Source: Neisseria sp. (lineage in GTDB: Bacteria; Pseudomonadota; Gammaproteobacteria; Burkholderiales; Neisseriaceae). Taken from it: DNA of 24,000 nt. The notes below the pieces were generated by a model, which searched no databases, was not told where the DNA came from, and was given only the letters and a program-made list of their open reading frames with translations. This document shows positions 3,768 to 21,993 of this stretch, piece by piece. The position numbers and the translations under genes are program-made. The stretch spans positions 27,883 through 51,882 of the forward strand of contig JAUNMN010000009.1 in the NCBI GenBank assembly GCA_030531795.1, in the 5' to 3' direction. The number at the start of each line of letters is the position of its first letter. The stretch's first letter is position 1.

Positions 3768-4206
3768 TGCTGTATTCCTTTTCTATGTTTAAGAAAGAAA
3801 CTTAAATCAGAGATGTTTTGTTCACCCCTTGAATTAAGCTTTGGTATTCATCGCTGCGGGTACAGCGATTTCATGGCTGTAATATAAATGCTTAAACGCA
3901 AAAAAACAAACTCAATTGCGGATTTTTCTTGCTAACCTAGAGAAAATCTGTTGTTTTTTGGCAACATGGAATTTTTATTCTTATATTTTTCAAAATCTTA
4001 TTGATATTTTTTATTTGCATTTTTTTGTTGTTGTTTTGTGTTGTTTTTTTGCACATTCGGCTGAAAACGGGGATTTGACTCGAAAAAATGGTGCGCAAAT
4101 CGGGAAAACAGTGAAGCGCAAAGGCTGATTTTTGGGGTTTGAGAGCGGTTTTTGGCTGTTTGTGCGCTGACTACTCATGATTTGTGCAAGTGTAAAGTGA
4201 CAAAAA

Positions 4207-4248
4207 ATGCCGTCTGCAACTGATTATTTCAGATGTGCAGACGGCATT
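4207..4248 (-). terminator. Inverted DUS-pair terminator after gcvP
   Basis: ATGCCGTCTGCA at 4207-4218 and TGCAGACGGCAT at 4237-4248. On the minus strand the hairpin is followed by T6. Confidence 0.75.
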
Positions 4249-4250
4249 TT

Positions 4251-4310: not shown

Positions 4311-7157
4311 TTATTCGTAGTTGTCGATGCTTGGGCATGAGCAAACCAAGTTGCGGTCGCCGTATACATCGTCTACGCGATTGACGCTTGGCCAGAATTT
4401 GTTTTCACGCACATAAGGCAATGGGAAAACGGCTTCTTCGCGGCTGTATGGACGCGTCCACTCGCCATCGGTTACGTTTGCCGCGGTGTGCGGCGCGTTG
4501 CACAATGGGTTGTTATCCGCTGGCCATTCGCCGTTTTGCACCTTCAAGGCTTCTTGCTTGATTTGTTTCATGGCGGCGATGAAGCGGTCTAACTCGGCTT
4601 TGCTTTCGCTTTCGGTCGGCTCAATCATCAAAGTGCCTGCCACTGGGAAAGACATGGTTGGCGCGTGGAAGCCATAATCCATCAGGCGTTTGGCGATGTC
4701 TACTTCAGTTACGCCGCTTTCGGCTTTCAATGGACGCAAATCGATGATGCACTCGTGTGCCACGCGACCGTTTTTACCTGTGTACAACACGGGATAGTCG
4801 CTGCTCAATTGTTTGGCGACGTAGTTCGCGTTGAGCAAGGCGTTTTCGGTTGCTTGACGCAAGCCTGTTTTGCCCATCATGGTGATGTACATCCATGTAA
4901 TCGGCAAGATGCTGGCTGAACCGTAAGGCGCGGCAGAAACGGCACTCATGCCTGCAGTTGCGCCTGCCACTGGGTTCACCACATGGCTAGGCGCGAACGG
5001 CGCTAAATGTGCTTTCAAACCGATTGGACCCATGCCAGGACCGCCGCCGCCGTGTGGAATACAGAAGGTTTTGTGCAAGTTCATGTGCAACACATCTGCG
5101 CCGACTTCGGCTGGCTGCATGATGCCGACTTGGGCATTCATGTTCGCGCCGTCCATGTAAACTTGACCGCCGTTGTCGTGAATGATGCGACAAATGTCGC
5201 GAATGCCCTCTTCATACACGCCGTGGGTTGATGGATAAGTAATCATCAATGCACCCAAATTGTCGCGGTGTTGCTCGGCTTTGGCTTGCAAGTCGGCGAT
5301 GTCCACATTACCCAACTCGTCTGTGTTCACGACTACCACTTTCATGCCCAACATTTGTGCGGTTGCAGGGTTCGTGCCGTGTGCCGAACGCGGAATCAAA
5401 CACACATCGCGGTTAGGCTGACCGTTTGCCGCGTGGAAACGGCGAATCGCCAACAAACCTGTGTACTCGCCTTGTGCACCTGAATTTGGCTGAATCGCAA
5501 TCGCGTCAAAGCCTGTAATCGCTTTGAGTTGCTCTTGCAAGCCTGTAATCATTTCCAAATAGCCGCGCGTTTGTTCGGCTGGAGCAAACGGATGAATTTG
5601 ACTGAATTCCGCCCAAGTTACAGGCAACATTTCGGCGGTTGCGTTCAATTTCATGGTACAAGAACCGAGTGAAATCATGCTGCGGTTCATCGCCAAGTCG
5701 CGCTCTTCCAGTTTTTTCAGATAGCGCAACATTTCGTGTTCGGTGTGATAACGATTGAACACGGGATGCGACAAAATCGCGTCGGTGCGCAACAGTGCAG
5801 ACGGCAACTTGCCCGCCACTTCGCTTGGCAACACGCCTGCTTTGCCTGTGAACAATCGCACCAAAGCGGCAAAATCTTCGGCTGAACTTTCTTCGTGGAA
5901 TGCCACCGCCAACACGTTTTCATTCACTTGACGCAAATTGTAACCAGCTGCCAAGGCGTTTTGATAAATCTCGCCTGCTTTCGCTCCGCAATCTAAAGCA
6001 ACGGTGTCAAAGAACACGTTGTGTACTAATTGGATGCCGTCTGCAGTTACCGCGTCAGCGAACGCTGAAGCCAAAGCGTGAATGCGGTTGGCAATGCGTT
6101 TCACGCCTTCAGGGCCGTGGTAAACCGCGTACATGCCTGCCAAGTTCGCCAGCAAAACTTGTGAAGTACAAATATTTGAGTTGGCTTTTTCGCGGCGAAT
6201 GTGTTGTTCACGCGTTTGCAATGCCATGCGCAAAGCAGGTTTGCCCGAAGCGTCTTGCGACACGCCGATGATGCGCCCAGGGGCGTTGCGTTTGTCTGCG
6301 TCTTTGAATGTGAAATACGCTGCGTGTGGACCACCAAAACCCATAGGCACGCCGAAACGTTGGGTGTTGCCCAAGGCGATGTCTGCACCTAAAGACGCTG
6401 GCGATTTGAGCAAGACCAAGCTCATCACGTCTGCCGCCACGGCAACCACCGCGCCTTTGGCTTTCACTGCGGCAATCGGTGCCGCCAAATCGGCAACGTC
6501 GCCGTCTTTGCCAACGTATTGGAACAATGCGCCGAAGAAATCGCCATTTTCAGCAGCGGCAAAATCGCCCACCACCAACTCAAAGCCAAAATATTCGGCA
6601 CGGGTTTTCATCACATCTAAAGTTTGTGGCAACACGCGTTCGTCCACAAAATATTGATTCGATTTAGATTTGCTTACGCGTTTTGCCATTGCCATCGCTT
6701 CGGCGGCGGCAGTTGCTTCATCCAACAAAGACGCGCCAGCCAACTCATGACCCGTCAAATCGATGCACATTTGTTGGAAGTTTAACAAAGCTTCCAAGCG
6801 ACCTTGTGCGATTTCGGCTTGATACGGCGTGTAAGCGGTGTACCAACCTGGGTTTTCCAACACATTGCGCAAAATCACATTTGGCAAACGCGTTGGGTAG
6901 TAGCCCAAACCGATATACGATTTGTTCACCACGTTTTTGCTGGCAATGGCTTTGAGTTTCGCCAAAGCGTCGGCTTCGCTCAATGAATCAGGCAAATCCA
7001 ACTCTGCAGACGGCATACGCACGCTTTGTGGCACGGTGTTGCTCACAAAACTTTCCATGCTTTCTTCGCCCAAAGCCGCCAACAAAGCTGGCTGGTCTTT
7101 GAAGCTGATGTGGCGTGAAACAAATTCAGCAGAATTGAATAATTCGTTTAATTTCAT
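4311..7157 (-). CDS. gcvP: Glycine dehydrogenase (aminomethyl-transferring), glycine cleavage system P protein
   Basis: The 948-aa single-chain P protein is collinear with remembered GcvP. It shows [22 protein letters not shown] and the PLP-lysine region [16 protein letters not shown]. Confidence 0.97.
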
Positions 7158-7881: not shown

Positions 7882-8979
7882 TCAATCAAATTGTTTTTTG
7901 CCATTGCGTACAAACGGCAATTTCAACACGCGCACGTCCACTTCTTTGCCGCGAATCAACACTTTCGCGCTGTCGCCTTCAAAGTTTTTCGGCACACGCG
8001 CAATCGCGATAGACTGTTTCAAGCTCGGCGAGAACACGCCGCTGGTGGTGATGCCTTTGCCTTCTGGCGTAATCACTTCCATGCCGTCGCGTAAAATGCC
8101 GCCTTTGTCCAACAACAAGCCAACTTGTTTCACGTCCACGCCGCGTTCTTTCAAAGCCAACAAAGGTGCTTTGCCCACGAAATCGCGACTTTCGTCTTTC
8201 AAATCAACCGTCCAGCCCATGCCCGCTTGCAAAGGACTGGTGTCGTCGTCCATGTCGTTGCCATACAAATTCATGCCTGCTTCCATACGCAAAGTGTCGC
8301 GCGCACCCAAACCGCAAGGCTGCACGCCTGCTTGACGCAAAGCCGCAAAAAACGCGTTCGCTTCAGCCGCTGGCAAAATCACTTCCACGCCCTCTTCGCC
8401 TGTGTAGCCTGTGCGTGCCACAAACCAGTCGTTGCCCAAGTCTGCGCCTTGAAACACCGCCAAATTGTTCACCACGTCTGTCCACTCAGGTTTTACGGTC
8501 AATAATTTTTCAATGGCTTTAGGACCTTGCACCGCCAACATACCCAAGTCGTAACGCGGTGTTAAAGTGATGCCAAATTCTGCGCCCACTTTAGCAAACT
8601 GCGCCGAGTCTTTTTCACGCGTCGCGCCATTAGACACGATGCGGTATTGCGTTTCGGCTTCGTTGGTGCGATACACGATTAAATCGTCAATCACGCCGCC
8701 ATTGTCGTTCAACATTGCCGAATACAAAGCCTTGCCGACAAAAGACAATTTTTGCACGTCATTTGCAATCAATTTGCGGAAAAAGGCTTTGGCGTTGTCG
8801 CCCGTAACGTCTGTTACCAACATATGCGACACGTCAAACATGCCTGCGTCGGTGCGCACGGCTTCGTGTTCTTGGATTTGCGAACCGTAGTTCACAGGCA
8901 ATTCCCAGCCAGCAAAATCAATCAATTTGCCGCCTGCGTCTTTATGAGCTTGATTAAATGGGGTGGTTTTGAGGGTCAT
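7882..8979 (-). CDS. gcvT: Aminomethyltransferase, glycine cleavage system T protein
   Basis: The 365-aa product begins [53 protein letters not shown], the canonical GcvT N-terminus. A GGAG RBS sits upstream. Confidence 0.97.
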
Positions 8980-9034
8980 TCAAATCTCCTTTTGGACAAA
9001 ACAAGGGTGTTGCGTTCACTTTTCACGCGACCCT

Positions 9035-9243
9035 ATCTGTCCTTGAACCTGAGATTTTCGTGCCGTCTGCAGTTCAATCAACGATGCAAACCGCCTTTTC
9101 CCCTTCGGTGGACGCAGCCGCGTCTCTCTCCAGATGTGTTTTTTGACTATCCAGTCCTTTTGCCTGAGCGATTTAAGGGTAATCTGCGCCTTCGGCGGCT
9201 GCTTGAAAGGTTTTGCAAACCACAAGCAACGCTCTCCTGAATA
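9035..9243 (-). promoter_or_regulatory. Tandem-aptamer glycine riboswitch in the gcvT leader
   Basis: Minus-strand aptamer 1 reads CAGGAGAGCG...GCCGCCGAAGGCGCAG...CGCTCAGGCAAAAGGAC. Aptamer 2 reads TCTGGAGAGAGACGC...GTCCACCGAAGGGGAAAAGG...TCTCAGGTTCAAGGACAG. These are the conserved GGAGAG / ACCGAAGG / CUCAGG..AAGGAC cores, and they sit upstream of a glycine cleavage operon. A candidate expression-platform hairpin lies at about 9004-9034 and is followed by UGUUUUG. Confidence 0.88.
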
Positions 9244-9250
9244 TTTGGCG

Positions 9251-9279
9251 ATTATCGCACAATCGCTAACAACTGCAAA
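9251..9279 (-). promoter_or_regulatory. Candidate promoter of the riboswitch-gcvTHP transcript
   Basis: On the minus strand: TTTGCA (9279-9274), a 17-nt spacer, then GATAAT (9256-9251). This places a start site a few nt before the first aptamer. It is a pattern match only. Confidence 0.4.
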
Positions 9280-9507
9280 CGTTTCTTTACGCTTTTCGCG
9301 TTTTATCACAAAATTGCCATTTTTTAGTGTGTTTAACGCATTTAATCGCGTTTACTGATTTTTTATTTTAAAAAAATTCTGTTTTTGGTGTATTGTGTGT
9401 TATGAAAATTTACTTTATATTTCGTTCATCAGAACAAATCGCTTCATTTTTAGGCAAAAATTAAAAATGAATATTTCAACACTGAAAAGAGAATAAAGGA
9501 AATCATC

Positions 9508-9996
9508 ATGTCACAAACCATCACTTTAGATAAAACCGATTTAAAAATTTTGCAAGTTTTGCAAAGCAATGGTCGCCTAACCAATGTGGAGCTTTCAGAA
9601 CGCGTTGCCTTGTCGCCATCGCCTTGCTTGCGCCGTTTGAAGCAGCTGGAAGACGCGGGCATTATTCGCCAATACGCCGCTTTGCTCTCGCCCGTGCATG
9701 TGAATTTGAGTTTGCAAGCCTTTATTCGCGTATCGATTGACAAAGCCAGCGAAGCGCGTGAACAGTTTGCCGACGCAGTGCAAACGTGGCCAGAAGTATT
9801 GAGCTGCTTTGCTTTGACGGGCGAAACCGATTATTTGTTGCACACCTTCTTTTCAGACATGAACGCCTTCTCGCGCTTTGTGTTGGAAACCTTGCTGTCG
9901 CACCCAGGCGTGCAAGATGCCAAATCCAGCTTCGTGTTAAAAGAAATCAAAAACACCACCGCTTTGCCTTTGAGCCACTTGCAAAGCGAAGCGTAA
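9508..9996 (+). CDS. lrp: Lrp/AsnC-family transcriptional regulator
   Basis: The 162-aa product has the N-terminal wHTH LDKTDLKILQVLQSNGRLTNVELSERVALSPSPCLRRLKQLEDAGIIRQY and a C-terminal RAM-type domain (LTGETDYLLHTFFSDMNAFSRFV). It is divergent from the gcv operon. Confidence 0.9.
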   Translation: MSQTITLDKTDLKILQVLQSNGRLTNVELSERVALSPSPCLRRLKQLEDAGIIRQYAALLSPVHVNLSLQAFIRVSIDKASEAREQFADAVQTWPEVLSCFALTGETDYLLHTFFSDMNAFSRFVLETLLSHPGVQDAKSSFVLKEIKNTTALPLSHLQSEA

Positions 9997-10019
9997 ACCG
10001 TTTACGCATATTGCTTACC

Positions 10020-10065
10020 GATGCCGTCTGCAACTCAAAACTGCAGACGGCATCATGTTTTTCAT
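10020..10065 (+). repeat. Left copy of a direct repeat: DUS-pair terminator after lrp plus about 10 bp of flank
   Basis: GATGCCGTCTGCAACTCAAAACTGCAGACGGCATCATGTTTTTCAT. The hairpin is at 10021-10053 and is followed by T5. Compare the right copy at 11817-11866. Confidence 0.8.
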
Positions 10066-10243
10066 AGCCTTGTTCACGCCATTCAAATTTTATTAAATCA
10101 TTAATTTATTCAATATCTTAACTTATTTCACACTAAAAATCCCACACTTGCCCTATTGCCATATCCGCGCGACACAATTACATTACGCCAAACTACAATC
10201 GCCACAAAATGCTTATTTTCCAACAGCTTGTAGGAGGTAAATC

Positions 10244-10315
10244 ATGTACACAATGTTTTATCTTGACGCTCAGTGGTTTAATCTCGACCACCAGCTGGTT
10301 TGCTGTTTTCCATAA
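10244..10315 (+). CDS. tnaC: TnaC-like tryptophanase operon leader peptide (23 aa)
   Basis: This ORF is too short for the ORF track. TAGGAGGT lies 5 nt upstream of ATG 10244. The peptide is MYTMFYLDAQWFNLDHQLVCCFP followed by stop. The W-F-N-(I/L)-D core and a Pro as last codon match E. coli TnaC (..KWFNIDNKIVDHRP-stop) with identical spacing: Trp to Asp is 4 and Trp to Pro is 12. It ends 72 nt upstream of tnaA. Confidence 0.75.
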   Translation: MYTMFYLDAQWFNLDHQLVCCFP

Positions 10316-10333
10316 TTTCCTTTTTTGCAAATA

Positions 10334-10367
10334 GTTGCGCCATGTTTTTCGTGGCAACGATTTTTTT
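10334..10367 (+). terminator. Weak candidate intrinsic terminator or attenuator in the tnaC-tnaA spacer
   Basis: GTTGCGCCA (10334-10342) pairs imperfectly with TGGCAAC (10352-10358), with one bulge. It is followed by GA and T7 (10361-10367). The stem is short and the loop is 9 nt, so this is low confidence. Confidence 0.3.
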
Positions 10368-10387
10368 ATCGCAAAAAAGGAAAATCC

Positions 10388-11803
10388 ATGAATACGTTTA
10401 AACATCTCCCCGAACCTTTTCGCATTCGCGTGATTGAACCCGTGAAACGCACCACGCGTGAATACCGTGAACAAGCCATTTTGCGCGCAGGCATGAATCC
10501 ATTTTTGTTAGACAGCGAAGATGTGTTCATCGATTTGCTCACCGACAGCGGCACAGGCGCGATTACTCAAGAAATGCAGGCGGCAATGTTGCGCGGCGAC
10601 GAAGCCTACAGCGGCAGCCGCAGTTATCACACTTTATGCAAATCGGTTAAAGACATTTTTGGCTACGACTACACCATTCCCACTCATCAAGGACGCGGTG
10701 CAGAACAAATCTATATCCCTGTTTTGATTCGAAAACGCGAGTTGGAAAAAGGTTTAGACCGCAACAAAATGGTGGTGTTTTCCAACTATTTTTTTGACAC
10801 CACGCAAGGACACAGCCAAATCAATGGTGCAACGGTGCGCAATGTGTACACCGCCGAAGCGTTTGACACCGCCGTTAAAGCCGATTTCAAAGGCAATTTT
10901 GATTTGGAGGCGTTGGAGCAAGGCATTTTGGAAGTGGGCGCAGCAAACGTGCCTTATATTGTCGCCACGATTACCTGCAACTCGGCTGGCGGTCAGCCTG
11001 TGTCAATCGCCAACCTAAAAGGCATGTATGCCATCGCCCGTAAATACGATATTCCTGTGGTGATGGATTCGGCGCGTTTTGCGGAAAATGCTTATTTTAT
11101 TCAGCAACGTGAAGCCGAATTCCAAAGCAAAAGCATCGCCGAAATCACGCTCGAAGCCTATCAATACGCCGATTTGCTGGCGATGTCGGCGAAAAAAGAT
11201 GCCATGGTGCAAATGGGCGGTTTGCTGTGTTTCAAAAACCAAGAAATGCTGGACGTATACACCGAATGCCGCACACTTTGTGTGGTGCAAGAAGGTTTTC
11301 CGACTTATGGTGGCTTGGAAGGCGGCGCGATGGAACGTTTGGCGGTGGGTTTGCACGACGGTATGCGTGAAGACTGGCTGGCGTATCGCATTGCGCAAGT
11401 GCAGTATTTGGTGGACGGTTTGGAAGCCATCGGCGTTGTGTGTCAGCAAGCTGGCGGTCATGCTGCGTTTGTGGACGCAGGCAAATTGTTGCCACACATT
11501 CCCGCTGAACAATTTCCTGCGCAGGCGTTGGCGTGTGAATTGTATAAAGTGGCAGGCATACGGGCGGTAGAAATCGGTTCGTTTTTGCTTGGACGCGACC
11601 CGAAAACAGGTTTGCAATTGCCTTGCCCAGCCGAGTTGCTGCGTTTGACGATTCCGCGTGCCACTTATACCCAAACGCACATGGATTTCATCATTGAAGC
11701 CTTTGCCAAAGTGAAAGAAAACGCACAGAACATCAAAGGTTTAACGTTCACTTACGAACCTAAAGTCTTGCGTCATTTCACGGCTTTATTGAAAGAAGTG
11801 TAA
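10388..11803 (+). CDS. tnaA: Tryptophanase (tryptophan indole-lyase)
   Basis: I chose the start at ATG 10388 (AAGGA RBS), giving 471 aa: [28 protein letters not shown]...[19 protein letters not shown]...[18 protein letters not shown]...[15 protein letters not shown]...[19 protein letters not shown]. It is nearly collinear with remembered gammaproteobacterial TnaA and has the same length as E. coli TnaA. The listed ORF start at 10325 adds 21 implausible residues. Confidence 0.95.
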
Positions 11804-11816
11804 AGCCAAAACGTGT

Positions 11817-11866
11817 GATGCCGTCTGCAACTCAAAATCGCAGACGGCATCAAATGTGTTTTTCAT
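11817..11866 (+). repeat. Right copy of the direct repeat: DUS-pair terminator after tnaA plus flank
   Basis: GATGCCGTCTGCAACTCAAAATCGCAGACGGCATCAAATGTGTTTTTCAT. In the 35-bp core it differs from the left copy only by a CT/TC dinucleotide swap. A 4-bp indel precedes the shared TGTTTTTCAT. Confidence 0.8.
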
Positions 11867-11963
11867 CATCATTTTGTGAACAAAAGTTTACCACCTTCGC
11901 ATTGTCCACACGCACACTAATAATGCTAAAATCGCCTTTTTTTCTGACGCTTTCACCCGATTT

Positions 11964-12548
11964 ATGTCCATCAATCCAGAACAAATCCGCGAACACACCC
12001 AACAATGGCTGGAAAAAGCCGTGATTGGTTTGAATTTATGCCCGTTTGCCAAAGCACCGTATGCCAAAAATCAGGTGCGCATTGTGGTAAGCCAAGCCAA
12101 GCACAGCGATGCGTTTTTGGAAGACCTCGACCGCGAATTGCAATTCATTGCGGCAACACCAGCCGATGAATGCGAAACGACTTTGCTGGTTCACCCCACT
12201 TTATTCGGCGACTTTTTGCAGTTTAACGATATGTTGGACTTTGCCGAACAAGCGATTGAAGATAACGATTTGCTCGGTGTGATTCAAATCGCGCCGTTTC
12301 ACCCCGATTTTCAATTTGATGGCACCGAAGCCAGCGACATCAGCAATTACACCAACCGCTCGCCCTACCCAACTTTGCACTTAATCCGCGAAGCCAGTAT
12401 TGAAAAAGCCGCCCAAGCCTTTCCCGACCCTGCGGCGATTTTTGAACGCAACATCGCTTTGTTGAAAAAAATGGGCAAAGCAGGCTGGGACGCGCTGGAT
12501 TTGCCGTCTGCAGACGGCATCGCCAAACAAACGGAACATTCATCATGA
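11964..12548 (+). CDS. DUF1415-family protein, function unknown
   Basis: The 194-aa product contains WLEKAVIGLNLCPFAKAPY...IAPFHPDFQF...NYTNRSPYPTLHLIRE, as remembered for DUF1415 proteins of beta- and gammaproteobacteria. Its stop overlaps the next start (ATGA). Confidence 0.75.
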   Translation: MSINPEQIREHTQQWLEKAVIGLNLCPFAKAPYAKNQVRIVVSQAKHSDAFLEDLDRELQFIAATPADECETTLLVHPTLFGDFLQFNDMLDFAEQAIEDNDLLGVIQIAPFHPDFQFDGTEASDISNYTNRSPYPTLHLIREASIEKAAQAFPDPAAIFERNIALLKKMGKAGWDALDLPSADGIAKQTEHSS

Positions 12549-12907
12549 TTATGCGTTCGGTGTTTGGCGTGTTGGGCGCACTTGCTTTGATTTTGGGCAT
12601 CATCGGCTTGTTTTTGCCCGTGATGCCGACCACGCCATTTATTCTGCTTGCCGCCGCTTGCTGGGCAAAAGCGTCGCCGCGCTTTCACGCATGGCTGCGC
12701 AATCATCCGCGTTTTGGCGTGATGGTGCAAAACTGGGAATCGGGACGCATCGTGCCGCGTCGCGCCAAATATTTGGCGTTTACCATGATGACGGCTTCAT
12801 GCGTGTTTTTGTGGTTTACCATGCTCGAGCGTTGGTATCTGCCTGCCGCCGCCACGCTGATTTGCCTTGCAACCGCGCTGTGGATGTGGCGCTTACCAGA
12901 ACAATAA
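12545..12907 (+). CDS. ybaN: YbaN-family inner membrane protein (DUF454)
   Basis: The 120-aa product contains LGIIGLFLPVMPTTPFILLAAACWAKASPRFHAWLRNHPRFG, the YbaN/DUF454 signature. It has predicted TM helices and is translationally coupled to the upstream gene. Confidence 0.85.
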   Translation: MIMRSVFGVLGALALILGIIGLFLPVMPTTPFILLAAACWAKASPRFHAWLRNHPRFGVMVQNWESGRIVPRRAKYLAFTMMTASCVFLWFTMLERWYLPAAATLICLATALWMWRLPEQ

Positions 12908-12948
12908 AACTTTCATTTTCAAATGTTTAAATAAACACTCTCAAAGCC

Positions 12949-12968
12949 ATGCCGTCCGCAGACGGCAT
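12949..12968 (+). terminator. Compact DUS-derived hairpin after ybaN
   Basis: ATGCCGTC-CGCA-GACGGCAT forms an 8-bp stem with a 4-nt loop. The downstream T-tract is weak (TTTGCTTT). Confidence 0.55.
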
Positions 12969-13126
12969 TTGCTTTATGTAAACAAAGGCTAACATTGACT
13001 AGCCCTATCTTAACTTTTTGATTACAATCTCTATTCATCGTGTGGCAAATTTGCGATTTTCATCGCCAGCCACACATGTTCAATAAAACTATAAAACTTT
13101 GTTTTATCAAAAGAAAAGGAATAACA

Positions 13127-14545
13127 ATGCGTATTCAAACCGCCTTGCTTCCCCTGCTGCTTTCTCCAGTAACATGCTTTGCCGCAGGTATGCCAAATGG
13201 CGCAGAACTCAGCTTATTATGGGGTTTACCCTTCGCCCTCATCTTACTTTCTATCGCCACAGGGCCGCTCTTTTTCGCCCACATCTGGCATCATCATTTC
13301 GGCAAAATCACCGCCGCATGGACTTTGGTTTTCTTGCTTCCTTTCATTGTTTTTTATGGTTTTGGTGCTGCAGTCGGCACAGTTGCCCATGCCCTCGTTG
13401 AAGAATACATTCCCTTTATTTTATTGCTGTTGGCTTTGTACACCGTGTCGGGCGGCATTTTGGTGTGGGGCAATTTACACGGTAGCCCCAAACTCAACAC
13501 CGCCATTCTCGCCATTGGCACGGTTTTGGCTTCCATCATGGGGACAACGGGCGCAGCCATGCTGATGATTCGCCCTTTGCTCAAAGCCAACGACAACCGC
13601 AAACACCGCGTACACGTTGTTGTGTTCTTCATTTTCTTGGTTGCCAACATCGGCGGCGGTTTAACCCCACTGGGCGACCCACCTTTGTTCTTGGGCTTTT
13701 TGAAAGGCGTGGATTTCATGTGGACGGTGCAACATATGTTGCCACCCGTGTTAATCAGCAGCGTGATTTTGCTCACCGTGTTTTACTTTTTAGACCGCTA
13801 CTTCTTCTCTAAAGAAGACGAAATTGAAGCCAAAGACCCCACCCCCGACAGCAAATTGCAAATTTTCGGCAAATGGAATTTCTTGCTGTTGGCAGCGATT
13901 GTGTCGGCAGTGTTGATGTCGGGCATTTGGAAGCCGAATGTCGAATTCGATATTTTGGGCAGCCATTATGCTTTGCAAAACTTGGTACGCGATGTGATTT
14001 TGCTTGCCATCACTTTCATTTCTTTGAAAATCACCCCCAAACAAGTGCGTGCTGGCAACGAATTTAACTGGGACCCGATTTTGGAAGTGGGCAAACTGTT
14101 CTTGGGCATTTTCATCACCATCGCCCCCGTGATTGCCATTTTGAAAGCAGGCGAAGCAGGACATTTCGCAGGCTTGATTTCGCTAGTACACAACGAAGCA
14201 GGGCAACCGATTAACACCATGTATTTCTGGATGACGGGTTTGCTCTCGGCATTTTTGGACAATGCCCCAACCTATCTCGTCTTCTTCAATATGGCAGGTG
14301 GCGATGCCGCCTCATTGATGACAGGCGCACTGTTCCACACCCTGCTTGCCATTTCGATGGGTTCAGTGTTTATGGGTGCATTAAGTTACATCGGTAATGC
14401 ACCGAATTTCATGGTCAAAGCCATTGCCGAACAACGCGGCGTGGCGATGCCAAGTTTCTTCGGCTACATGGCTTGGTCGTTCGGCATTCTCGTGCCATTA
14501 TTCTTATTGCATACTTTGATTTTCTTTGTGTGGCAAGTGTTCTAA
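13127..14545 (+). CDS. Polytopic inner-membrane transporter, ArsB/NhaD-superfamily (annotated in relatives as a putative sodium:proton antiporter)
   Basis: I chose the start at ATG 13127 (AAAGGA RBS), giving 472 aa that begin MRIQTALLPLLLSP. The protein is highly hydrophobic with at least 10 predicted TM segments and motifs such as GGGLTPLGDPPLFLGF and FLDNAPTYLVFF. Substrate is not determinable from sequence. Confidence 0.65.
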   Translation: MRIQTALLPLLLSPVTCFAAGMPNGAELSLLWGLPFALILLSIATGPLFFAHIWHHHFGKITAAWTLVFLLPFIVFYGFGAAVGTVAHALVEEYIPFILLLLALYTVSGGILVWGNLHGSPKLNTAILAIGTVLASIMGTTGAAMLMIRPLLKANDNRKHRVHVVVFFIFLVANIGGGLTPLGDPPLFLGFLKGVDFMWTVQHMLPPVLISSVILLTVFYFLDRYFFSKEDEIEAKDPTPDSKLQIFGKWNFLLLAAIVSAVLMSGIWKPNVEFDILGSHYALQNLVRDVILLAITFISLKITPKQVRAGNEFNWDPILEVGKLFLGIFITIAPVIAILKAGEAGHFAGLISLVHNEAGQPINTMYFWMTGLLSAFLDNAPTYLVFFNMAGGDAASLMTGALFHTLLAISMGSVFMGALSYIGNAPNFMVKAIAEQRGVAMPSFFGYMAWSFGILVPLFLLHTLIFFVWQVF

Positions 14546-14551
14546 ACGCCG

Positions 14552-14617
14552 ATGCCGTCTGCAAACTGAAATCGTCTCTTGCTTTGTTCATGAGCCTTTT
14601 TCAGGTGCAGACGGCAT
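14552..14617 (+). terminator. Wide-spaced inverted DUS pair after the transporter gene
   Basis: ATGCCGTCTGCA at 14552-14563 and TGCAGACGGCAT at 14606-14617 are followed by T6. The 42-nt spacer makes a large loop. Confidence 0.55.
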
Positions 14618-14729
14618 TTTTTATCGTTCATTTTCAAAATCATTCACGCGTTTGGTACGCCAAATAAATGACGCGAAACCTTGTCCGCGCCAACAAAAAA
14701 ATCCAACCCAACATTGAACACCACAAGCC

Positions 14730-17980: not shown

Positions 17981-18001
17981 GTGCCGTCTGCAGACGGCAT
18001 C
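17981..18001 (+). terminator. Overlapping palindromic DUS pair after rlmD
   Basis: TGCCGTCTGCAGACGGCA at 17982-17999 is a perfect 18-bp palindrome centred on CTGCAG. The nearest T-run (TTTTTT) is about 12 nt downstream, so terminator activity is uncertain. Confidence 0.5.
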
Positions 18002-19176: not shown

Positions 19177-19196
19177 AGCTATTAAAAGCATAAAAA

Positions 19197-19262
19197 ATGC
19201 CGTCTGTGACTGAAAGGAATCCCATAGCGAAGCTATAGGGGCGTTTCATTTGCAGACGGCAT
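19197..19262. terminator. Inverted DUS pair between the convergent GNAT gene and pepN
   Basis: ATGCCGTCTGTG at 19197-19208 and TGCAGACGGCAT at 19251-19262. T6 follows on the minus strand, serving pepN. A nested small imperfect hairpin lies at 19219-19242. Confidence 0.6.
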
Positions 19263-19282
19263 TCGTTTAGCCAAAAATCGTT

Positions 19283-21910: not shown

Positions 21911-21944
21911 TTTGCTCTCTTGATTAAACTTAAAACAATAAACA

Positions 21945-21981
21945 ATGCCGTCTGCAGTTTTCTAAACACTGCAGACGGCAT
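21945..21981 (-). terminator. Inverted DUS pair after fabG, inside the short pepN upstream region
   Basis: ATGCCGTCTGCA at 21945-21956 and TGCAGACGGCAT at 21970-21981. Confidence 0.65.
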
Positions 21982-21993
21982 CTCATTTGTTCA

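Follow-up and report, generated by a model that had tools for sequence, protein, structure and literature searches.

The tnaCAB operon of Escherichia coli and Proteus is under TnaC-mediated, tryptophan-induced control. In naturally transformable Neisseria, whole genes can be carried between conserved chromosomal genes as minimal mobile elements (MMEs), reportedly described by Saunders and Snyder in 2002 and by Snyder et al. in 2007. As far as the definition is quoted in PMC3082526, MMEs are alternative cassettes that occupy one site among strains and are exchanged via homology of the flanking genes. Terminators made of inverted DNA uptake sequences (DUS) have been described for Neisseriaceae, together with the 'aniDUS' dialect GCCGTCTGCA of N. 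animalis (bioRxiv 10.1101/2025.10.24.684340). The locus described here lies in a 24-kb stretch of a Neisseria metagenome-assembled genome (MAG; contig JAUNMN010000009.1, positions 27,883 to 51,882), hereafter the window, to which the repeat and DUS counts below refer. It holds a tnaC-tnaA cassette (tnaCA) between lrp and a DUF1415 gene, bracketed by two near-identical direct copies, T1 and T2, of one DUS-pair hairpin. We consider it probable, at roughly 0.65, that tnaCA was acquired horizontally and inserted into the lrp-DUF1415 gap at the DUS-pair terminator of lrp, which was locally duplicated, no mobility gene being involved.

The cassette resembles an MME in being whole-gene cargo between two conserved chromosomal genes, its left (gcvT/lrp) and right (DUF1415-DUF454) neighbours being syntenic in relatives, and in being foreign cargo at a site that is occupied or empty among those relatives. 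Only tnaC and tnaA lie between the repeats, and no integrase, transposase, tRNA target or transposon-like ends accompany them. Unlike the MMEs of PMC3082526, the site shows only tnaCA or nothing, and does so among different species; moreover, the cargo is bounded by a 46/50-nt direct terminator duplication, a feature absent from the definition in the portion quoted there. Islets between direct repeats, formed by Campbell-type single crossover or by target-site duplication, offer a second comparison, since here too a host-sequence direct repeat stands on both sides and permits precise excision in principle, whereas the tna cassette has no recombinase, att core, transposase or, the hairpins aside, terminal inverted repeats. 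Its duplicated unit, a whole DUS-pair hairpin with its U-tract, is far longer than transposon target-site duplications. Transposon or insertion-sequence (IS) insertion was rejected, since the direct repeats enclose neither a transposase gene nor terminal inverted repeats and the duplication measures 46-50 nt; integron cassette and tRNA-targeted island were likewise rejected as classes for this islet. CREE-like dispersed repeat families have many copies at unrelated loci, against two in the window and one loosely related hairpin among GTDB species genomes. As a type the hairpins are ordinary: like the described inverted-repeat DUS terminators, T1 and T2 are inverted DUS pairs just past stop codons, followed by U-runs. 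What is unusual is that two neighbours share loop and tail around a foreign cassette.

The two copies of the hairpin

The window's gene order runs gcvP, gcvH, gcvT (minus strand), lrp, T1, a promoter-like site, tnaC, a 72-nt spacer, tnaA, T2, DUF1415, DUF454, CitMHS_2. The hairpins and the genes that flank them are as follows.

9508 to 9996, plus strand: 'lrp', gene of an Lrp/AsnC-family regulator (Pfam AsnC_trans_reg and HTH_24), left conserved flank, divergent from gcvT-gcvH-gcvP
10020 to 10065, plus strand: T1, left repeat copy, DUS-pair hairpin with the sequence GATGCCGTCTGCAACTCAAAACTGCAGACGGCATCA TGTTTTTCAT
11817 to 11866, plus strand: T2, right repeat copy, DUS-pair hairpin with the sequence GATGCCGTCTGCAACTCAAAATCGCAGACGGCATCA AATG TGTTTTTCAT
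11964 to 12548, plus strand: DUF1415 gene (Pfam), right conserved flank

T1 has a 13-bp stem (10020-10032/10042-10054), a 9-nt loop ACTCAAAAC, the tail A-TGTTTTTCAT and two perfect aniDUS; T2, which begins 13 nt past the tnaA stop, has the loop AACTCAAAATC, a 4-nt insertion AATG before the same TGTTTTTCAT tail, and one perfect aniDUS beside one with a single mismatch (GCCGTCTGCG). A first-pass annotation of this DNA had called the hairpins at these coordinates near-identical direct copies with a common 3' flank, differing by a dinucleotide swap and a 4-bp indel only, and both statements proved exact: one CT/TC dinucleotide in the loop and AATG are the sole differences between the 46-nt and 50-nt copies. 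Local alignment of the two regions scores 71, against 17.4 +/- 2.4 for shuffled sequence (z = 22), and finds no similarity past either end of the 46/50-nt block. The copies are spaced 1797 nt apart and are about 92-96% identical, with 21 nt as the longest exactly shared stretch; a repeat search places them in one family (D5, 94% identity over 36 nt), and the repeat's 36-mer, with up to 3 mismatches allowed, occurs twice in the window and never in 100 dinucleotide shuffles.

The window holds ten inverted DUS pairs, and only T1 and T2 have a loop in common. In an all-against-all hairpin alignment their pair ranks first at 71, the other 44 pairs having a mean of 31 (sd 7.5, maximum 54). Semi-global scoring of loops and flanks did not discriminate and was replaced by local alignment and by a comparison of loops within and between loci. 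The annotation's further remark that every other DUS-pair terminator differs in spacer and flanks thus stands for the shared loop and is true of the flanks in degree, not absolutely, as the hairpin at 2276 is partly alike to those at 21943 and 4205 and to T1. The hairpins 2276 and 21943 (regions 2264-2320 and 21931-21990) share a 5' AACAATAAA, a loop core TAAAC and a tail ATTTGTyCA, all outside the DUS arms, and the loop start ACTGA is common to the hairpins 2276, 4205 and 19195 (regions including 4193-4250 and 19183-19265); 2276 and 4205 flank a porin gene. Because several hairpins share sequence outside the arms, DUS-pair terminators would seem to be evolutionarily related modules, as this pattern suggests.

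Each copy is positioned to terminate one transcript, and T1 is presumed to be the terminator of lrp and T2 that of tnaA. As RNA, T1 folds at -24.6 kcal/mol (z -5.35) and T2 at -27.6 kcal/mol (z -6.15). UUUUU runs follow both stems, beginning 3 nt past the stem in T1; in the T2 fold the insertion and an upstream ACGU lengthen the stem so that the U-run comes directly 3' of it. Neither was called in a terminator scan, their loops of 9-11 nt exceeding its limit. The near-palindromic form of the hairpins makes T1 and T2 inverted repeats of one another too, 81% complementary (10020-10055 and 11816-11851), and inversion of the cassette by recombination between the copies is conceivable in principle, besides its deletion.

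The aniDUS 10-mer GCCGTCTGCA occurs 30 times in the window and the GCCGTCTGAA dialect not once; with its CTG core and strong over-representation, GCCGTCTGCA corresponds to the aniDUS dialect. The DUS-free stretch of 1.76 kb is weakly unusual, at P about 0.1 as estimated from the window's DUS density. Because the dialect ends in TGCA, two inverted aniDUS can merge into a perfect palindrome of 16-18 nt, TGCCGTCTGCAGACGGCA, and such overlaps occur three times (12502-12519, 17982-17999 and 12950-12967), one of them imperfect and one within the coding sequence of DUF1415, at its 3' end.

It is improbable that the hairpin with the loop ACTCAAAA is one of many copies across the genome, two of which happen to flank tnaCA by chance or as members of a dispersed family. 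Partial kinship among the window's hairpins (2276 and 21943 in flank, loop core and tail, 2276 and T1 in their loops) speaks for such a family, as does a hairpin of unrelated locus in another Neisseria MAG (L017), and the copy count covers the window and not the whole source genome. The two copies in 24 kb are, on the other side, consecutive. Searched against 185,579 species genomes, the 18-mer of DUS and loop, TGCCGTCTGCAACTCAAA, gave 17 matches in unrelated taxa, about the number expected by chance, and the single Neisseria match in L017, whose loop ACTCAAAACAACAACC begins ACTCAAAAC; a repeat 20-mer had 0 matches in JGI metagenomes, viral contigs gave 2 chance matches, neither with a hairpin, and the 55 compared loci contain no further copy. 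The loops of 53 DUS-pair hairpins, each of at least 11 nt, were compared across non-redundant Neisseriaceae loci totalling about 180 kb; 3 of 125 within-locus pairs had similar loops, and similarity at the T1/T2 level was reached by 0 of about 1249 between-locus pairs at non-orthologous positions. Because similar loops are thus concentrated within loci, near-identical DUS hairpins seem to be a phenomenon of neighbours, which favours local duplication over a dispersed family.

The three within-locus pairs are T1/T2, a pair in the Neisseria locus L026 (41-82/3425-3466) and a tandem duplication in N. animalis. The L026 hairpins, also present in L027-L029, are 42 nt long (AAAA..AAAATGCCGTCTGAATCATCATTTCAGACGGCATTT), 95% identical and have an identical loop, and bracket a 3.4-kb segment with genes for a LysR regulator, a Zn-alcohol-dehydrogenase and a luciferase-like oxidoreductase. 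This segment is a second example of hairpin-bracketed cassette architecture. Its bracketing hairpins are of the GCCGTCTGAA type, while 3' of position 5595 in the 13.4-kb locus the DUS are nearly all wadDUS (CCTGTCTGAA); immediately within both ends of the segment stands a small hairpin, TTTTCAGGCAGGCTGAAAA. In N. animalis (L003, 1832-2036 and 2067-2271) the tandem duplication is 235 bp long and 94% identical, and since each unit has a full DUS-pair hairpin, DUS terminators can duplicate locally without cargo.

The lrp-DUF1415 site in relatives

The relatives compared are a Neisseria MAG (L032), a Logan contig (L033) and two complete genomes of N. leonii (L039/L040), in all of which an lrp orthologue at 84-91% adjoins DUF1415. 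The best NCBIfam match of the window's 'lrp' product is the Lrp equivalog at a score under the cut-off, so that the name given in the first-pass annotation holds at the level of the Lrp/AsnC family and not as an equivalog assignment. To the right of T2 the window continues with the following features.

11896 to 11932, plus strand: promoter-like sites for DUF1415, 3' of T2, from a consensus scan only
12545 to 12907, plus strand: DUF454 (Pfam), 3' of DUF1415
13040 to 14545, plus strand: CitMHS_2 (Pfam), after DUF454

The order is gcvT / lrp - DUF1415 - DUF454 - CitMHS_2 - Gly_transporter in L032 (lrp 1321-1794, DUF1415 1942-2517), gcvH-gcvT / lrp - DUF1415 - CitMHS_2 in L033 and gcvH-gcvT / lrp - DUF1415 - DUF454 in N. 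leonii (lrp 8001-8489, DUF1415 8557-9126). None of these has tna genes between lrp and DUF1415, the spacers being 147, 159 and 67 nt, respectively. Exactly one DUS-pair hairpin lies in the spacer of L032 and of N. leonii, and one DUS and another hairpin in that of L033. By blastn, the window aligns to L032 over 8207-9973 and 11990-12738; between these blocks lie about 2016 nt of the window and 190 nt of L032, an indel of about 1.83 kb that is close to the 1797-nt repeat spacing. Of the predicted empty site with one copy of this terminator, the relatives therefore bear out the empty site and, in L032 and N. leonii, the single hairpin, but the hairpins there have other loops and belong to the GCCGTCTGAA dialect. 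The relatives are distant, at 73-79% nucleotide identity. T1 and T2 resemble each other and not the orthologous hairpins of the relatives, from which it follows that the duplication came after the split from these lineages.

The same comparison bears on the idea that T1-tnaCA-T2 is ancestral at this site and was lost cleanly by repeat recombination in L032, L033 and N. leonii, each of which was left with one hairpin. The single DUS-pair hairpin at the empty sites of L032 and N. leonii is what excision between the copies would leave, and the lineage of N. leonii has had tna genes, the species being indole-positive (PMC11316581). Yet at least three independent losses would be required, T1 and T2 are alike while the relatives' hairpins are unlike them, other Neisseria carry tna at other loci, most relatives lack it, and the locus with the nearest TnaA (L035) adjoins putA and has tnaB; ancestral presence is accordingly a poor candidate. 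In N. chenwenguii, N. animalis and Bergeriella denitrificans, lrp is not beside DUF1415, which is preceded by DUF2868 or prmA, and without that adjacency these species were ruled out as empty sites. The lrp-DUF1415 site is confined to a subclade; a DUF1415-based search of metagenomes returned 12 loci, 0 of them with lrp upstream.

Since the window comes from a MAG and Logan contigs break at DUS hairpins, a tna contig of another organism might have been joined to this one at DUS repeats. Such a mis-assembly is extremely improbable. An independent Logan assembly (L001) is identical to the window over 10024-14635, with 0 mismatches over 4612 nt, and gives T1 (part), tna, T2 and DUF1415 and continues through DUF454-CitMHS_2; because of this identity, the arrangement T1 (part)-tnaCA-T2-DUF1415 is not a MAG artefact. 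The codon use of tnaA and the dialect of both hairpins match the host, and no run of more than 21 exact bases is common to T1 and T2.

Around lrp, a small perfect palindrome GCGTAAACCGTTTACGC at 9991-10007 overlaps the lrp stop codon just 5' of T1, and a glycine riboswitch aptamer (RF00504, 57.5 bits) lies at 9142-9249 on the minus strand, upstream of gcvT and between the divergent gcvT and lrp. This expected riboswitch was the only hit of the Rfam and tRNA scans, which found no known RNA family or tRNA at the cassette junctions.

Contents and origin of the cassette

The segment between the hairpin copies had been read as holding only the tna leader and tnaA, and this is what it contains, along with the tna promoter, the only other open reading frames being frame-overlapping ones within tnaA.

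10156 to 10184, plus strand: tna promoter-like site TTGCCA-17-TACATT, from a consensus scan
10244 to 10315, plus strand: tnaC leader peptide gene, translated as MYTMFYLDAQWFNLDHQLVCCFP and stop
10316 to 10383, plus strand: structure in the tnaC-tnaA spacer, fold z -5.24
10388 to 11803, plus strand: tnaA, tryptophanase (Pfam Beta_elim_lyase), intact, 471 aa

The TTG and TTAC positions of the promoter-like site do not vary among five aligned tna leaders of Neisseria and Cardiobacteriaceae. TnaC scores 16.3 against TIGR02616, below the cut-off of 23.55, and its W11, D15 and P23-stop align in the same spacing with W12, D16 and P24-stop of E. coli, and are invariant in six leaders. TnaA passes the TIGR02617 equivalog (950.9 bits, cut-off 825.8). 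The cassette thus shares with the tnaCAB operons of E. coli and Proteus the order of leader and tnaA, the TnaC signature W-x3-D-x7-P-stop and the TnaA equivalog, and differs from them in having no adjacent tnaB: T2 follows 13 nt after tnaA, and no Trp_Tyr_perm gene occurs in the window. At other Neisseria and Cardiobacteriaceae tna loci tnaB is present.

The leader departs further from that of E. coli in its spacer, which there is 220 nt long and unstructured (z -0.14) with an unpaired Shine-Dalgarno sequence (SD), and here is 72 nt long and strongly structured with an SD-sequestering helix; the long unstructured spacer of E. coli Rho-dependent termination is not found in the window. A 13-nt anti-SD strand directly past the tnaC stop (10316-10328, UUUCCUUUUUUGC) is 100% complementary to the strand with the tnaA SD (10371-10383, GCAAAAAAGGAAA), and between the two paired strands lie a small hairpin (10339-10355) and, after it, a U-run. 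The leader regions compared were window 10313-10390, L035 272-380, L038 230-325, L030 744-806, L025 5891-6006 and, from E. coli, L041 369-597. In the four other Neisseria and Cardiobacteriaceae leaders the closing helix is a feature of the minimum-free-energy or centroid fold, with strands that differ and yet stay complementary; spacers measure 54-107 nt across these five lineages. The duplex of stop-proximal strand and SD beats shuffled sequence in 5/5 of them (fraction 0 to 0.034), and does not in E. coli (fraction 0.21). The tna leader therefore appears, from these folds, to use SD sequestration. Arrest of a ribosome at the tnaC stop would hide the anti-SD strand beneath it and unmask the SD, and for this reason tryptophan induction here may act by SD unmasking, possibly combined with anti-termination at the internal hairpin, and not only by blocking Rho. 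The idea did not come up in a brief literature search.

TnaA is of gammaproteobacterial type, 86% identical to the enzymes of E. coli and other enterobacteria, Pasteurellaceae and Vibrio. Nearest to it, both at 92%, are those of a DUS-free Cardiobacteriaceae-like contig (L038) and of a Neisseria with GCCGTCTGAA DUS (L035), followed by a Cardiobacteriaceae MAG (L030, 90%) and Neisseria of the wadDUS dialect (L025/L026, 88%). A neighbour-joining tree places it as sister to L035 within a clade that interleaves Cardiobacteriaceae and Neisseria and adjoins the Pasteurellaceae and Enterobacterales clades, so that the comparison with the species tree that had been proposed turned out incongruent. In three Neisseria lineages tna lies at three loci, between lrp and DUF1415 in the window, next to pnp (L025/L026) and next to putA (L035-L037), the order being tnaC-tnaA-tnaB at the latter two. 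Because the phylogeny is mixed and tna sits at different loci, the pattern is best read as horizontal acquisition with independent integrations and not as vertical descent. In N. leonii, an example of the sporadic occurrence of tnaA in Neisseria, the indole-positive phenotype is called atypical for the family by the describers of the species (PMC11316581); the lrp-DUF1415 site of N. leonii is empty, and its tnaA therefore lies elsewhere.

Composition was uninformative as a sign of recent transfer, as GC, third-position GC (GC3) and codon use of tnaA are indistinguishable from those of host genes, with GC3 tracking the host in every lineage. Third-position identity of tnaA is 50-65% between any two lineages and 55% to the nearest known relative, that is, saturated. 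From host-like GC3 and saturated third positions it seems that the transfers are old or the donors unsampled.

At the Cardiobacteriaceae-like loci L030 and L038, arrays of a motif ..TCTCAnnATAAGCGCTTAT.. surround tnaCAB and no DUS are present. L025, L030 and L032 come from one accession series (JAUN...), and the Logan runs SRR24915803 and SRR24915807 are adjacent; on these grounds the Neisseria and Cardiobacteriaceae with related TnaA are suggested to share a habitat. The tnaCAB beside pnp in wadDUS Neisseria has Correia-like repeats (TATAGCGGATTAAC...GTTAATCCGCTATA) and minimal-loop wadDUS pairs on both sides, in the flank regions below, and because the genes upstream of it differ between L025 and L026, the region is variable.

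L025, 5340 to 5630 and 8684 to 8963: flanks of the pnp-side tnaCAB
L026, 5330 to 5630 and 8684 to 8847: flanks of the pnp-side tnaCAB

Candidate routes of insertion and their meaning

Several findings weigh against insertion with duplication of the lrp terminator. An ancestral single copy of this very hairpin is not seen in the available relatives, none of which is close, and comparison of the sequence after T1 and after T2 with the post-hairpin spacers of L032 and L033 gave no signal over shuffles, the intergenic DNA being too diverged for the original copy to be assigned. The lrp-T1 junction is seen in the MAG contig alone, and further copies of the repeat may lie in the source genome beyond the 24 kb in which it was counted. 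The 21-nt longest shared run is short for a RecA-mediated crossover. Finally, the repeats have diverged by roughly 4-8%, and the foreign acquisition looks far older than that; this mismatch of ages is as compatible with later homogenisation or a secondary move as with a single event.

Later gene conversion is the main rival to duplication at insertion. The cassette would have come with, or later gained, an unrelated DUS-pair terminator, and the identical 13-nt DUS arms would have seeded a gene conversion or template switch that copied loop and tail from one hairpin to the other. An ameliorated, synonymously saturated tnaA between near-identical repeats is what such homogenisation would leave. 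Other Neisseria tna loci, moreover, carry DUS-pair hairpins of the host dialect some 180-196 nt 5' of tnaC and again after the operon, so that flanking hairpins would be the norm and a possible substrate for conversion. The shared block, however, continues for 11-15 nt beyond the right arm, in the tail TGTTTTTCAT, for which the arms offer conversion no guiding homology, the arm homology itself is merely 13 nt, and other neighbouring hairpins of the window, 843-1929 nt apart, have not been homogenised. We regard this course of events as rather unlikely.

Under the preferred reading, insertion at the lrp terminator, a self-contained cassette comprising its own promoter, the TnaC arrest-peptide leader, the structured 72-nt spacer and tryptophanase would have entered the short lrp-DUF1415 intergenic region at lrp's DUS-pair terminator, in a Neisseria lineage of the aniDUS dialect. 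That terminator would now exist in two direct copies, 46 and 50 nt long, T1 ending the lrp transcript and T2 ending the tnaA transcript and insulating DUF1415, which has promoter-like sites of its own. The duplication most likely came about as the cassette was inserted or relocated by recombination at the hairpin; candidate routes are single-crossover integration of a circularised molecule of cassette and terminator and homology-facilitated illegitimate recombination, with the transforming DNA anchored in the DUS arms. That duplication and insertion were one event, the route of recombination, the activity of the hairpins as terminators and the possibility of excision are all points that we infer from the sequence. 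Excision between T1 and T2 is possible in principle and should be rare, since the longest identical run is only 21 nt. The proposal that the cassette was inserted at, or duplicated, the lrp terminator is thus upheld as regards insertion, by the empty sites, the incongruent TnaA phylogeny and the three Neisseria loci, while the ancestral copy of this hairpin was not observed.

A wider claim, which we put forward tentatively and hold to be doubtful, is that DUS-pair terminators are preferred points of capture and insertion for foreign cassettes in Neisseria and are duplicated in the process, giving transposase-free modules of terminator, cargo and terminator that carry uptake signals at both ends and could leave as circles and integrate by recombination at other DUS terminators. 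The second cassette in L026 and the enrichment of near-identical hairpins among close neighbours point this way, as does the DUS-pair hairpin about 180-196 nt upstream of tnaC at each of the three Neisseria tna loci. If true, such modules would be a general vehicle for the mobility of islets, beyond MMEs exchanged through flank homology.

The cassette is best placed as a small horizontally acquired islet of a known, MME-like kind, of which terminator-bounded cassettes are a possible variant. It also represents a compact tna leader in which TnaC stalling may work via SD unmasking rather than via Rho. For Neisseria, it provides a case, resolved to the base pair, of a naturally transformable bacterium fixing a foreign metabolic and signalling trait, indole production, without mobility genes, and indicates that a DUS-pair terminator in duplicate can be the scar of insertion. 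Should this hold generally, recent islets in Neisseria genomes could be recognised by such duplications, and DUS, terminators and gene gain would be tied together mechanistically.

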